Shown piece after piece: positions 53,256 through 61,112 of a stretch of DNA of 64,000 nucleotides (positions within the stretch are counted from its first letter, which is position 1; the number at the start of each line of letters is the position of its first letter). The notes under the pieces were generated by a model. That model saw only the letters and a list, made by a program, of their open reading frames with translations, made no database searches and had not been told where the DNA came from. Where the stretch lies: contig CAVQMO010000012.1 in NCBI GenBank assembly GCA_963713605.1, forward strand, positions 1-64,000, in the 5' to 3' direction. The position numbers and the translations under genes were made by a program. This stretch comes from an uncultured Nitrososphaerales archaeon. Lineage in GTDB: Archaea; Thermoproteota; Nitrososphaeria; Nitrososphaerales; Nitrososphaeraceae.

Positions 53256-55003
53256 CTAAGTATGTAAATTAACTAATTGCTCTCTGGTTAATATGACTGG
53301 CAATACTGTCCCAGGTCGTGCCTTATATCCAGGAACTCCTACTCCCACGGCGATCATCGGTCCTCTTATTAGCCGCATGTGGAGCAAAGAATTCGGTCGT
53401 CGCATCATCGAAGAATGTTGTTCCAGATGCCCCTATAGAGTGTGCATAGCTTGACAAGTATATTTTACCTGTAATGATCCCTGCTTCAAGCTGAGCAACC
53501 CGATATCCTCTGTTACCAAGTTCATCGAGCACCTTATGAAGATCCGCCATCAAGAATATCACTGCACTTGCATCACTAAAAAGAGACTGGCCTAGACAAA
53601 GATAACCGGAGATCTGCCTTGATGCATTTCTTTTTAACAAATCGAACGCTTTGAGTTTGCGATTAAAGAAATATGCCCCAGGTTCTAGACCAACCACACT
53701 ATTAGAGATAAGATAAGCGTCGATTACCGATGACATAGCTTGTTCATTTGCGAAGACATCCATTGGCACTCCCCGTGTGGAGCTGTCAAGTATAGAGAAA
53801 AGTGTGGAAATTGAAATAGACGAACGCTTATCAAACCTTCGAGTTGATCCTCGTCTCAATATTACTTCGCCGATAGTCATCCTTGTAGGTGTACCTGTGA
53901 CATCTGACATCTCTTTTCGGTCCAAAATGGGTTCAGTGTTGTTTTCCAATTCAATGTTTTGATGTCGTTGTTCTAAATGTTGCTTGGAAATTGAGCTCGT
54001 ATTGTGATTAGTTTGGATTTGCTGGCCAGATAGAGGTATTATTTGTTTGAATGTCGATCCAAGATTCGACATCTCCTCTATCTAAAAGTTTTGAATTTTG
54101 GTGCACTTTCCAAATATCAGGATAATCTATCTCTTCTCCTTGTGACACCGATACAATCTTTGGAATGGGTAGATCACCAATTTCTTTTTGGATATTGCTA
54201 TCTGTCTTGGAGTCAGATTTTGGGCAATAGCCTATCCCAATCGACGCAATTACTATCGAAGCTTCTTTTAGAGCCTCCAAGCGCAATAGTCTATCAACTA
54301 TATCGTCGACATACCCCATAATCAATTTGGTAGGAAGCTTCATCGATGCAGTAGTTGCCAAGAGATTAGCAACAATCACACCACAGTCCCAGAACCAATG
54401 ACGATAAGATCTTGCCTGATATTTCCATGAATTTCTCCATGCCAAAGAAGAAAATATTATGGAAAGAGGCGACGTAAAGATTGTGTCATATTCTCTTTTT
54501 GCTAACGCGGTGGAAGCCAATGCATGTCTGTAATCTCCGCTTCTTAGCTGAGTTAAGCTGAAATCGGCTGGACCAAAATGATACACTCCAGCAGTTAGAT
54601 CTGGAGTTATGTCACCACAAACGACGTATAATTCTATAGGATAGAGGGCCCCTGTAGCAGAGGCAGCACGCATGAAATAGGTGCCGTAACTATATCTCAT
54701 CACCCTTGTTATGCCAGCAGCAAAAAATAGGATCTCAGATATATCCGTGGCAGAAACAGATTCCTTGGCTTTTATTGTATTATAATCTGCAGGTTGCTTG
54801 ACATCTGAGATTGAAGTGATCGAATCTAAATTTGGGATAGGGAAATTATTCGTAAGAGGGTAACGTGGTTGTTCAAGATATGTTTTAAAAGGCATCGGAC
54901 GGTTATCGTAGTCTAAATAATGTCTAGAGGTCATTATGCTGACTTCTGAATGTTTAGTTGCTTCATGATAATCTAACGCGTGTTGAATCTCCTTATTGTT
55001 CAT
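53256..55003 (-). CDS. SagB/ThcOx-family tandem nitroreductase-domain dehydrogenase (frameshifts ~54020, ~53370)
   Basis: YHEATKHS, RAASATGALYPIELY, WKYQARSYRH, second domain RRGSTRRF...RGYRVAQLEAG. Confidence 0.9.
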
Positions 55004-55386
55004 TGATTTGTAATGATTGAAGACTGATATAATTTTTACAAATGGATAGGACTCGAATAGTGGATACATATGATGATGGTCTTGAAAATTGCGTCATAGC
55101 TAGCTATAATATCTAATTCTATTCAAGAAATCAGCTACACCTTGATAGACGCTTTTCAAAACAGACAGAATCTACCTAGGTTCTACGGACTAGCAAAGTG
55201 AACTTGTGCAGGATTTTGGATTAGACTGTTCTACACAATTCGCATGAATTTTGCCAAAAACATGGAAAGTCTTAAAATGATATGCATTTACGAAAAAAGC
55301 TATTGTCCCCTTATCAACTTCGATAAAAATATCTTTATACTCCTCAGGAATATTGTATTATTGAATGTCAAACCCAAACGACAAGT

Positions 55387-56133: not shown

Positions 56134-58310
56134 TCAAGGCTTATTCTTGCTAGGTGATTCATCGTCAAGGAAAAAATCCGAGTCCTGATCAGTAACTTCT
56201 CTGATCGTATTGGAATCAGAACGATGAGAAGCAGGAGTGATTTTAGCGTTAGATTTTTTTTCTTCTTTCTTCCTCTTGTTTCTACGTCTGATCAAAAACA
56301 ATACAACTATAATTACAATGATGATAATGATCACAATTGGAAAGATACCCGAAAATCCATTCGCAAAAGTGAATGCGTCGCTAGTACTGTCATTGTTATT
56401 GGACGCCGACACCTGTCCTTCATATACAACTGTATCATTTAATAGCAATTCATGAACCATTCTAAGATTATCACTATAAGTAACGTTTAGGCTCACAGGG
56501 TAGTTACCTGCTGGTAGATCACTGTCAAGGCTAAGAGGAATACTAAATGGAAGTGGAGAGTTCTCGGAGAGATCCCCTAGATATTGTTGTTGGGATGGAC
56601 CTTTAACCAAAGATTTGTTCAAGCTGCTCTGCGATGATGATTCTGCCCTATTTGCAGGATTGACTAAATCTATTGTCGTAAATAGTGCGACTGTATTTCC
56701 TTCATTCAATAAATTACCGACTAGATTTGGGGCACCACCTACGTAATTTAAGTCAAGATCGTATGTCCTAATCCGTATTTGGCCGTCAACGTAAGCGCCA
56801 ATGTTTAGAGTGTCTGTTTTGGACTGTCCCCTTTCTATGGTACTCGGCATTTATTTCAAATTCCGTAGGCGTATTAATCACGTCCGCGGCGGCATAAACG
56901 GTTGTAGACATTGGGAAATTTGATAGAGGAGCCATATAATCTACCCTCCATCTCGAGTCTCCTAATATCTTGACAGAATTTGTCCCTGACGAAAGGGAAA
57001 AAACGATATCTGTAAGCGGTAAACTCCCATTGTTGGTTATACTAAACCTAAGGTTTTCTAACCTACCTGCTGTAAGTTTTATCGGGTCTTCGTTAATTTC
57101 TTCTTCAGCTTCATTTACATTACTCTTACTATCATTGGCAACATAATCCTGGCTACTGGACGTAGTTGAAATTATCCCTGGATTTATGCTGAGCACAGAC
57201 TCCGGCGGATTTGGCGCTACGATCATTCCTATTGAATAATCGGAATCGGTACGTATGCCATATGCGTTATTGTAGGCTATCTCCAGATCCAAAGTCTGTA
57301 TCGTTCCTCCAGAAGAATAGTCAGGATATATAATCGGAGTGATTAAGACTGAGCTGCCGGCCGGAATATTTCCGATGTTAAAAGATTCTGAATCGACAGT
57401 TGTAGTAGAAGAGCCATTTACCGAATTGCTGTCAGAAGATACTGTTTGCGGCAGTCGTTCCCCCAGAAACTCCTACCACCGTAACTACTGCTCCTGTTGC
57501 GTTAGCTGTTCCATCATTTGTTATAGGAATTTGTAATGGATTTGGATAACCGGCAGTTAGATTTTGATTTAATAATGTGGTATCTAAAATTACTTTACCG
57601 GTCACTCTAAATGGGATCATCATTGAGGTTGAAATCTGCCCGACCTCAAGAATCTTCGAATATGATAATGTTAGGTCACCAGTGTATGGACCCACTCTGG
57701 CTTGTGGAAGAACATCCATTGTGAAGTACATAGTGAAAGTGTCACCTGCCTTAATGATAGAATCGTAGCTGGCCACTGCAACATTTGGAGAGGTGACATT
57801 ATTCTCACCTTCAATCGCTCTAAATCCAGGGGGAAGGGTTAGATATCCAGTTACCCCTGTAATATCAGTTCTTCCTCTATTTACGAATACTATCGCAAGA
57901 GTAGAGGTTCCTTCTCCAGGGCCAATTTCCTTCTTGGAGTTGTTTGTGGTTGACGTGGAGGTAGAGATAGAATCTTCTGTCCAATATGCTTCAAGAAAAG
58001 AAGGAGCTCTATCAGTTTGAACAGAGATGGGAATAATAGTGGGAGGAGATGAATTAGACGGTTGAGCAAATACATTCGCTCCAAATATTGTAAATAGTAC
58101 CAAATATGCGACTAGTGATATTAATAAGGGACATAACCCTAAACTGATAAGAGCACTTGAGTTTTTTCTGTTCCGCTTAGATGCAGCAATATTTCTATAC
58201 CGCCTCAGTAGGTTTCCTCTTCGCATGGGCTCCAAAGTACATCCTTCGAAAAAGGAACAAGGAACATTGTCATATTTCTCCCTTAGGTTATATCTTCCCT
58301 GTTCCATCAT
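56134..58310 (-). CDS. COG1361-type S-layer/CARDB-like multi-Ig-domain membrane protein (at least two frameshifts)
   Basis: Signal/TM, repeated beta domains (LAIVFVNRG, ITNDGTANA, ITNNG, NLLNEGN), C-terminal TM plus RRRNKRKK. Confidence 0.82.
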
Positions 58311-59071
58311 ATTCTATTTATTATCTCTTTTTCAATGGCCCCATCCCGGATGAAAATGGTCCTATCTGTCCTAGATGAAAGGTCAGAGTTGTGTGTTACA
58401 AATACGATAGTTCTTTTGAACTTATTAGCAAGCATTCTTAATAGATCAAAAACCTCTTCTCCTGTCTTCGTATCTAAATTTCCAGTTGGTTCATCTGCAA
58501 GAATTATGGCAGGATTATTCATAAGAGATCTAGCAATGGCTACCCGTTGTTGCTGTCCTCCACTTAAATTTACTGGCTTAAGCCTTGCTTTATTTTCGAT
58601 ACCTAATATTCTTAGCAGTTTTAGTGACCGTCTATGTCGCACTTCACTATTCATTCCTGAGATAACAGCTGGAATCTCAACATTCTTCTGAACCGATGTT
58701 CTGTTAATTAAATTAAAGGATTGAAATATGAAACCTATTAGAGAATTTCGCATTTGAGCAATCTGACTATCTTTTAGGGAAAAAATATCTACATTATCGA
58801 TGAAAACTCTTCCACTGGATGGTCGATCCAATGCACCGATAATGTTTAGTAACGTTGACTTACCACTTCCAGAAGGGCCTACAATTGAGATAAATTCACC
58901 TTTTCTAACTGAAAAACTAATTTCCTTAAGAGCAATCAATTCTCCTGCTGGAGACTTAAAGACCTTTGAAACATTTTCCATTTTTAATGCGACAGGCAAT
59001 AAAAGATCATCGACTTCATTATTAGCGTTAGGTTCCGCCTTTTGATTATATCTTATAACATTGTCACGCAT
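58307..59071 (-). CDS. ABC ATPase, LolD/MacB-like
   Basis: GPSGSGKST, IGFIFQSFNL, LSGGQQQRVAIAR, ADEPTGNLD, VTH. Stop overlaps the next gene's start. Confidence 0.95.
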   Translation of the reverse strand: MRDNVIRYNQKAEPNANNEVDDLLLPVALKMENVSKVFKSPAGELIALKEISFSVRKGEFISIVGPSGSGKSTLLNIIGALDRPSSGRVFIDNVDIFSLKDSQIAQMRNSLIGFIFQSFNLINRTSVQKNVEIPAVISGMNSEVRHRRSLKLLRILGIENKARLKPVNLSGGQQQRVAIARSLMNNPAIILADEPTGNLDTKTGEEVFDLLRMLANKFKRTIVFVTHNSDLSSRTDRTIFIRDGAIEKEIINRI

Positions 59072-59679: not shown

Positions 59680-60354
59680 CTAGCTATTTACCATCTTCTC
59701 GAATTTTGCATCTTTAGCTGTAACAAGTCCTCTATCCACTAATGGTTTTTCTCCTAACGCCTTCTCTATAGCTCGATCGCTTAATTGGACGGCTTGAGCA
59801 ATGGTTATATCTTCGGTATATTCTTTCTGAATTATGTCGATAGCTGTGTCCGAATACTGTCCTATTGCGAAACCAGATCCACTGAAGTATGTACCGCTAG
59901 GATCAACTTGATACAATTGAACCCCTGTCGGATCAAGTCCAGCAATAATTATCGATGCTGCCTGAGGTCTTACTGCATAAATTGTAAAGTCGTGCAAGTA
60001 GGAGCTGAGCTGTCTTGCGAGCGACTTTATATCTATGGGACTATCATAAGTGAATCTGTATTTCTGTGCTGCAATTCTCATCTCATCAATTAGCTGAAGT
60101 ATGTCTCCTATGTATCCAGAACCAGTAGCACCCACATGTCCATCTATTGCAAATATCTTCTCTGATGGTTCTACCAAAGGCTTTGTAGGCTTAATGTGAC
60201 TAGAGATCAGGGCAAAAGTTGACGTTTTGATTCCTATTGTGGTTGAACCCCTACCAACTGCCTCAAGAGCACTATCTACTAATAACAGTCTTCCTTCAGG
60301 TCCATAGTAGTAAGGATATCTCGTGTTAATTCCTGAGCTACCTAAATCGGCCAT
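59680..60354 (-). CDS. psmA: 20S proteasome alpha subunit, divergent
   Basis: GPEGRL...ALEAVGRGSTTIGI, EKIFAIDGHVG, RPQAASIIIAG, LYQVDPSG, AIG. Confidence 0.9.
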   Translation of the reverse strand: MADLGSSGINTRYPYYYGPEGRLLLVDSALEAVGRGSTTIGIKTSTFALISSHIKPTKPLVEPSEKIFAIDGHVGATGSGYIGDILQLIDEMRIAAQKYRFTYDSPIDIKSLARQLSSYLHDFTIYAVRPQAASIIIAGLDPTGVQLYQVDPSGTYFSGSGFAIGQYSDTAIDIIQKEYTEDITIAQAVQLSDRAIEKALGEKPLVDRGLVTAKDAKFEKMVNS

Positions 60355-60359
60355 TTCTA

Positions 60360-60946
60360 TTATCTCTCCCTCTCCTTCACTACTAAGGAAAGGTTTGGGA
60401 TCGTCAATACATCTATACCGTTTCCAGAACCAGGATCTCTTTCCATTGCTGCAGCTACGGCTTTAGTAGCTATCTCCTTTGCTTGTTCATTGGTCAAGTC
60501 TTTGTGAAATATGCTTTCAAGGACTCCATATGCAATGGGAGAGCCCGAACCAGAGGAAGCAAATTCCTCACCGGTAATGGCTCCACTCATATCTGCAACA
60601 AATATGTGTCCACCTTCTTGATCTACTCCACCTACCAGTAATTCCACGAAGTATGGTTGATAGTTCTTGAGCCCGGTGTATGCCTGATTAGCGATTAGCC
60701 TCGCTGATTCTTTTACCGTGACTGGAAATCCTCTTCGTAACTCGATTAGATTTCTTTCAGCCTTTACAAGCTTAACCATGTAATCTGCATCGGATAGCTC
60801 GCCCAGCAATTGCTACTGCTAAGGTTTCATCTATTTTTGTTATCTTTTGCGTAATCTTAGAACCTATAAAGAATCCCTTACTGGCTCTTCTGTCAGAGCC
60901 CAGTACCGACTCCTTCTTTTGTTCTTATACCAACTATTGTGGTCAT
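60360..60946 (-). CDS. psmB: 20S proteasome beta subunit without propeptide (two single-G frameshifts at ~60907 and ~60803)
   Basis: Corrected reading MTTIVGIRTKEGVVLGSDRRASKGFFIGSKITQKITKID...AGELSDAD...LLVGGVD...SSGSGSPIAYGVLE...AMERDPGSGNG; GGTGAAAGGAG RBS-like sequence before the ATG. Confidence 0.9.
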
Positions 60947-61112
60947 TTTCTTTCTCCTTTCACCAGATATATCTACGCAAGAGAAGTATTAATTGACCAG
61001 CATCTATGGAAATGAGTCACAGTCATTGTACCAGATCATATAAGAGTGAAAGCAACTAAGTTACCCTTGGTGCATCTTTAATACTTGGAAATCCATATCA
61101 TGGCGATCCGAA

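Follow-up and report, generated by a model that had tools for sequence, protein, structure and literature searches.

Archaeal proteasomes are regarded as a single, constitutive particle whose gating depends on the YDR motif and HbYX activators. Extra subunits can allow a second particle type, as they do in Haloferax volcanii, where alpha2 (PsmC) gives alpha1/alpha2 particles, and in the eukaryotic immunoproteasome. The beta-then-alpha gene order is that of prcBA in the actinobacterial Pup-proteasome.

Gating has been described for T. acidophilum, where the open gate is stabilised by the YDR motif and Ile12 and Thr13 switch between the states (PMC10349882, PMC12352868). Single changes at Ile12 or Thr13 of this proteasome were reported to increase basal activity by about 2- to 6-fold and to weaken the response to PAN or PA26 (PMC10349882). 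According to PMC8665760, the archaeal propeptide has no known function.

Here we describe a beta-alpha gene pair in a stretch of 64,000 nucleotides (the window) from an uncultured archaeon whose nearest named relatives are Nitrososphaeraceae. The features of the locus, in positions of the window, are:

60360..60946, minus strand: beta gene of the psmB3 type (beta3), without a propeptide; 194 aa long in relatives, while the window copy carries two one-base insertions
59680..60354, minus strand: alpha gene of the divergent psmA2 type (alpha2); 224 aa, intact open reading frame
alpha2 protein: Gly/Ser-rich flexible N-terminal tail, then an aromatic motif replacing the YDR/IT gate; HbYX pocket kept
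60992..61020, minus strand: conserved inverted-repeat site GTGAC-N18-GTCAAT, the likely operator of a winged-helix regulator
60987..60993, minus strand: AT-rich TATA-like box directly after the site, the putative promoter of the beta-alpha unit, based on sequence and conservation columns
about 60954..60964, minus strand: purine-rich RBS-like run before beta, kept in the genus and missing from many relatives
60364..60376, minus strand: purine-rich RBS-like run before alpha, within the last beta codons
61113..61580, plus strand: Usp gene, a divergent neighbour outside the conserved system

The window alpha scored 137 bits with PF00227, and the window beta opens with Met-Thr-Thr, its reading being spread over three frames. 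A first-pass annotation of this DNA had taken the two genes for a self-contained operon of co-oriented beta and alpha genes 5 bp apart, and the beta stop codon is indeed separated from the alpha ATG by 5 bp. Inspection of the neighbouring genes also confirmed that no pup or ATPase gene adjoins the pair. Both RBS-like purine runs that it had pointed out are present. Many relatives, however, lack the run before beta, and their beta ATG follows the promoter site by about 30 nt. The divergent Usp gene is likewise in place; this arrangement is, however, confined to the genus and the link is incidental. As a member of the system Usp was ruled out, being local to the genus and preceded by the site in none of five relatives' Usp genes. 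Downstream of the pair, at 56134-59071 (minus strand), come an ABC ATPase gene and then a gene for a large surface protein, which is broken into three frames; both are conserved there only in this genus. A SagB-like double nitroreductase gene in two frames (53323-55069, minus strand) is in one piece in relatives and is likely a further assembly error. Ten short contig pieces of low depth, from four metatranscriptome runs of two studies and taken without a silent-stretch control, lie over alpha, beta and Usp; we do not count them as evidence of expression.

Alignment with five relatives showed that two single-base insertions, at 60906 and 60800, are unique to the window beta. The extra base at 60800 is missing in contigs of four out of four public DNA runs, and that at 60906 in all three DNA runs covering the position and in one RNA run; the pieces without extra bases include one of 263 bases with a single other differing letter. 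Across the three frames, the window retains the codons for Thr1, Asp17, Lys33, Gly47, Ser129, Asp166 and Ser169. The two breaks are probably assembly errors: neither relatives nor near-identical public contigs have them, and the source assembly is rich in splits, with broken frames in 4/10 genes for which relatives of the genus provided a comparison. A true pseudogene in the source strain, as part of a decaying unit, would explain the two frameshifts as assembled, and broken betas do occur at two of the 68 named-record loci. We consider this very improbable, since both extra bases are missing from the public-run contigs, the assembly splits so many of its other genes, and the promoter site and regulator are intact; moreover, it would concern the strain alone and not the family. 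At the level of the family, the concern raised with the first annotation, that the frameshifts might be real and intact homologous operons lacking, was dispelled by the relatives, which have such operons.

The source genome (4.09 Mb, 87% complete) also holds one ordinary alpha with the YDR motif, on contig C1, and two ordinary betas. Ordinary alpha and alpha2 are 36% identical, and ordinary beta and beta3 39%. One ordinary alpha and two ordinary betas were also found in 10/10 further genomes, picked for having the pair, so that the pair is extra to a full ordinary set, as had been proposed. The accompanying expectation of psmA in the exosome/SBDS cluster is untrue of the source genome: ordinary psmA (L001:4282-5019 of contig C1) lies between purine-synthesis genes and rpl3-rpl4-rpl23, the neighbours being named by eye from translations. 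Ala replaces Thr1 in one of the two ordinary betas at several loci (L142, L146-L149, L174, L177, L178), so that this subunit is probably inactive; the source genome's copy of this type (L003) has its frame broken at the start. PAN was not found in the source genome, where the best match reached 314 bits against a cut-off of 500, its absence being unproven at this completeness. The genome has at least seven Cdc48-like loci, two of which end in Tyr-Arg and several of which are frame-broken, and five PAC2-type assembly chaperone homologues.

Among 119 Nitrososphaeraceae genomes that are at least 90% complete, alpha2 occurs in 73, representing 10 of 14 genera. A beta3 profile run against a 301-genome sample of the phylum gave 32 matches of at least 266 bits, with the next at 181 bits. 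These matches came from the source genome, 2/43 genomes of family f13 and members of families f24 and f26; the pair occurs in two further families of the phylum besides Nitrososphaeraceae. For proteins of the f24/f26 type, records carry Methanomethylicaceae/Methanosuratincola and Caldarchaeum names; further pair proteins are filed as Nitrosotalea and Nitrosocosmicus, and a single 61% match is filed as Thermoplasmata. A plasmid search found ordinary haloarchaeal alphas alone, at 21-36% identity. One genome of the genus (G011, contigs C262 and C110; L011/L041, L039) has two copies of the beta-alpha pair.

The conserved linkage suggested at the outset was clearly recovered: beta lies directly before alpha at 66 of 68 named-record loci, where the two exceptions are at contig ends, and at 29/29 other loci of the phylum sample. 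The gap between the genes is -4 to 6 bases in 65 of 68 measured pairs. The named-record betas comprise 58 that are complete, six cut by contig ends and two that are broken. Both subunits also proved to form the clades of their own that had been foreseen. Alpha2 is one clade with support of 100/99 (28 vs 16 rows, after removal of rows more than 85% identical and with a thin outgroup), and beta3 is one clade with an SH-aLRT of 97 (17 vs 139 rows, 120 of the latter being library representatives); the tree labels were set by profile score and are therefore partly circular, and they coincide with linkage. The pair is under purifying selection: median dN/dS in two groups was 0.051 and 0.041 for beta3 and 0.087 and 0.069 for alpha2, with about 0.01 for ordinary alpha. 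Two unpublished genomes (G013 and G398) are included in some tallies, and the conclusions are independent of them.

Within 72 beta3 rows, where some genomes are counted twice, Thr1, Asp17, Lys33, Gly47, Asp166 and Ser169 are present throughout and Ser129 in 71. A start codon immediately precedes Thr1 in 71/71 matched rows; these were chosen by that motif, and independent support comes from the unconserved upstream residues and from in-frame stops, which lie at most eight codons upstream of the start in 24 of the 71 rows (counted by eye). Beta3 has no propeptide, unlike the ordinary betas encoded in these genomes, whose propeptide ends in Gly(-1). Outside the beta3 clade, 11 of 120 library representatives share the Met-Thr start, which is therefore not diagnostic on its own. 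For Connectase, Met removal by methionine aminopeptidase is presumed in PMC7980362, and Thr1 of beta3 would be exposed by removal of the initiator Met in the same way. The C-terminal tail of beta3 extends a median of 26 residues past the Arg-Asp motif, as compared to 32 in ordinary active betas. Scored as a 149-aa piece only, the window beta reached 136.6 bits with the archaeal and 35.8 bits with the bacterial model.

A missing propeptide is a trait of Anbu, BPH and Connectase (PMC8665760, PMC7980362), and together with the shorter tail of beta3 it would be consistent with an assembly other than a barrel, such as a half-barrel, an open ring or a specific peptidase or transpeptidase like these proteins. 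We hold such an assembly to be quite improbable, as by their scores the two subunits are of the ordinary archaeal alpha and beta type, the nearest solved chains are 20S alphas, and beta3 has a full alpha partner that retains helix H0 and the Pro17 loop.

The AF2 model of alpha2 predicts a proteasome fold (pLDDT 74.8) with helix H0 at 26-34 and residues 1-17 at low confidence, and all listed Foldseek matches to this model are 20S alphas (TM about 0.68). Compared with ordinary alpha, alpha2 lacks about 20 aa at its C-terminal end. Its score of 158.3 bits with the curated equivalog model TIGR03633 is under the cut-off of 287.35, and the bacterial proteasome model gave no match to the window alpha. 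The actinobacterial likeness that had been noted for this locus therefore stands for the gene order but not for the subunit sequences, which fit archaeal models far better. For a resemblance between the aromatic gate motif and the N-terminus of the actinobacterial alpha, the literature searched offered no confirmation.

The gate residues Tyr8, Asp9, Ile12, Thr13 and Tyr26 are canonical in 30/30 ordinary alphas. Among 71 Nitrososphaerales alpha2 rows, positions 8-9 are for the most part occupied by Gly, Asn, Ser or Thr, Ile12 is changed to Pro in 69 and Thr13 to Tyr in 64, and position 26 is never Tyr. Lys66, Gly19, Gly34, Gly80 and Val24 are kept in 97/97 alpha2 rows and Pro17 in 96, the roles of the HbYX pocket residues being those given in PMC10349882. 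With the residues of the YDR motif, the IT switch and Tyr26 replaced, the canonical gate cannot work unchanged in this alpha2; the activator pocket persists. Because Lys66, Gly19, Gly34, Gly80 and Val24 are retained, alpha2 may still be bound by activators and by ordinary subunits. The rebuilt gate is not clade-wide, since the alpha2 form of family f24 keeps Tyr26 (17/17) and often Tyr8 (11/17). The first-pass annotation had further proposed a core particle perhaps independent of ATPase regulators. This is not supported: Lys66 and the remaining HbYX pocket are kept, though the gate residues are replaced.

Upstream of beta, a GTGAC-N18-GTC(A/G/T) site with an immediate AT-rich box was found in 99 of 102 regions, the three regions without the site being cut or masked; the spacer is 18 in 98. 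The site at 60992-61020 is the sole match in the window, where 0.05 would be expected. A weight matrix built without this genus gave it 38.3 bits, and the next match in the source genome scored 18.4, within the range of shuffled sequences, which reach above 22 bits with this matrix. Searching the source genome for a wider regulon with the short consensus yielded nine strict matches vs 6-13 in shuffles, which is not above chance, so that the window site is singled out by the weight matrix only.

At 28 of the 29 phylum-sample loci, the gene immediately upstream of beta encodes a winged-helix protein. In the source genome this regulator is 263 aa long, with an N-terminal wHTH and a C-terminal domain with conserved Trp residues, and searches of Atlas, PDB and NCBIfam match the winged helix only, below cut-offs. 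The regulator is single-copy in the source genome and is found there alone on contig C10 (321348-322139; L138:7346-8137, minus strand). Though unlinked, it is kept in 9/9 genomes of the genus that have the pair and in 11/14 of the genus overall; in two genomes of the genus it lies on the same contig as the pair, at a distance of 15-28 kb. Across the 301 genomes it is present in 32/32 with beta3 and in eight without the pair. Site, regulator and pair travel together, and from this co-occurrence we infer that the winged-helix regulator binds the site. The description of the operon as self-contained thus misses a dedicated DNA site and a regulator that is encoded on another contig of the source genome. 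What is new in the source contig is that pair and site are intact while the regulator has moved away.

The same site precedes other genes as well. At the named-record loci it was found before 24 of 27 HtrA genes, the three without it being the second genes of tandem pairs, before 14 of 19 FMN reductase genes and before none of the 192 other neighbouring genes scored; these loci are related, and the counts are therefore not independent. The HtrA orthologue of the source genome has no site upstream. In five regulator-only genomes of family f28 (L213, L215, L217, L218, L220), a variant with a 19-base spacer lies directly before HtrA (5/5 by eye), and the regulator adjoins HtrA in four of the five. 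In family f49 (L214, L216, L219) a variant site comes after the regulator, and L214 and L219 additionally have a small Pro-rich ORF (about 50 aa) there. In genome G214, a second strong site (L221:8151, minus strand; 32 bits) is located about 390 bases upstream of the regulator gene, which may point to autoregulation; at the named-record loci, none of 26 regulator genes had one.

Expression data exist for Nitrososphaera viennensis, whose psmA2 (NVIE_022230) and psmB3 (NVIE_022240) are adjacent extra genes that we take as orthologues by gene order alone. N. viennensis and Nitrososphaera loci share the order HxlR, alpha, beta, unknown gene, SUI1, protease DO, FMN reductase and pirin; compared to this region, regulator and HtrA are no longer adjacent in the window. 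The names psmA2 and psmB3 appear as annotation labels in the supplement of PMC7785015, and the main text of that paper, as far as consulted, does not discuss them. In copper-replete cells, psmA2 is given as 7.39, psmB3 as 5.22, protease DO as 5.25 and the ordinary subunits as 10.5-11.0 (PMC7785015, supplement 3), in columns that appear to be log2-scaled. Upon copper limitation, the same source lists log2 fold changes of +0.51 for psmA2, +0.85 for psmB3 and +0.64 for protease DO (adjusted p of 3e-8, 1e-6 and 2e-5, respectively), a decrease of psmB1 and psmB2 by about 0.3, no significant change for FMN reductase, and +0.66 for SUI1, which has no site. Its proteome lists psmB3 with one peptide at an intensity of 8e5, compared to 2.9e9 for psmA1, and does not list psmA2. 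These data fit a unit that is mostly off and shows a small, less than 2-fold stress response, and do not indicate strong induction. The stress induction proposed earlier is thus reduced to a hint: psmB3 and psmA2 do rise together with HtrA under copper limitation, but by less than 2-fold.

Our findings make us lean, if only slightly, towards the pair building a separate and separately switched barrel of the 20S type, whose assembly is a prediction. The main rival is that alpha2 and beta3 are exchange subunits, co-induced and built into hybrid particles with ordinary subunits, where they would alter the gate and the cleavage preference. Their 36-39% identity to ordinary subunits, with the core fold kept, is consistent with such mixing, as are the PAC2-type homologues of the genome and the unequal transcript values of psmA2 and psmB3, which depart from the 1:1 ratio expected of one transcript (PMC7785015). 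We nevertheless judge hybrid particles unlikely: alpha and beta are retained together at every informative locus, which replacement of a single subunit would not require, the C-termini of both are shortened, and both sit on long separate branches in the trees.

In this reading, the regulator would act on the site, which covers the position where TFB would bind, immediately upstream of the TATA-like box, and would probably repress the unit, with activation being possible. A protein-damage or redox signal would release the regulator and switch on the low unit. Removal of the initiator Met would then free Thr1 of beta3, so that no self-cleavage step would be needed, and alpha2 and beta3 would prefer each other and assemble into their own barrel. 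The rebuilt gate, consisting of a flexible Gly/Ser tail and a tyrosine ring, would presumably be leakier and might admit unfolded or oxidised chains with little need for an ATPase, while partners of the Cdc48 type may still dock. In its fullest form this proposal is possible, if doubtful: a fully separate, propeptide- and ATPase-free second proteasome with a tyrosine-lined gate that selects unfolded proteins, forming the core of a protein-damage regulon (a new winged-helix sensor family, the GTGAC-N18-GTC operator, HtrA and FMN reductase) in soil ammonia-oxidising archaea and some hot-spring or methanogen-like relatives.

A second particle, if real, would allow a direct test of what the archaeal propeptide is for and would test whether a 20S core can specialise in the ATP-independent removal of damaged proteins. 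The analysis further outlines a candidate stress regulon of ammonia-oxidising archaea, which are abundant soil organisms, and for a cultured model that has the pair, transcriptome and proteome data are already available.

We found no description of the pair, the site or the regulator as a system in the literature searched, whose scope left most subscription journals outside, and the genes carry annotation labels only. Term searches of PMC8665760, PMC3082918, PMC7554672 and bioRxiv 10.1101/2025.02.13.638070 returned no such description from the text accessible to them; in that of PMC8665760, the terms Thaumarch, Nitroso and operon were absent.

Compared to the known systems, the pair is closest to the canonical archaeal 20S proteasome of PsmA and PsmB (T. 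acidophilum 1PMA, A. fulgidus 1J2P/1J2Q, M. jannaschii 3H4P), which has the same fold, gives the nearest sequence matches and has the beta catalytic residues, the alpha Pro17 loop and the HbYX pocket in common with it. It differs in being extra to the ordinary set, in its beta-alpha operon, in the lack of a propeptide and in an operator and regulator of its own; in Nitrososphaerales alpha2, the YDR motif, IT switch and Tyr26 are replaced, and the window alpha scores below the TIGR03633 cut-off. With actinobacterial prcBA the pair shares the gene order, but its neighbour clusters hold no pup, pafA/dop, ligase or ARC/Mpa/ATPase gene. Anbu, BPH and Connectase, together with the 22 homologues that Fuchs, Alva and Lupas described in 2021 (PMC8665760), have Thr1 exposed by Met removal, as may be the case for beta3; proteins of the Anbu/BPH/Connectase type are, however, beta-like, stand alone and are distant from the proteasome clusters, whereas beta3 always occurs with an alpha and is 39% identical to ordinary beta. 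In contrast to Haloferax alpha2 and the immunoproteasome, finally, it is here a complete alpha and beta pair that comes with a dedicated operator and regulator, as predicted from the locus.
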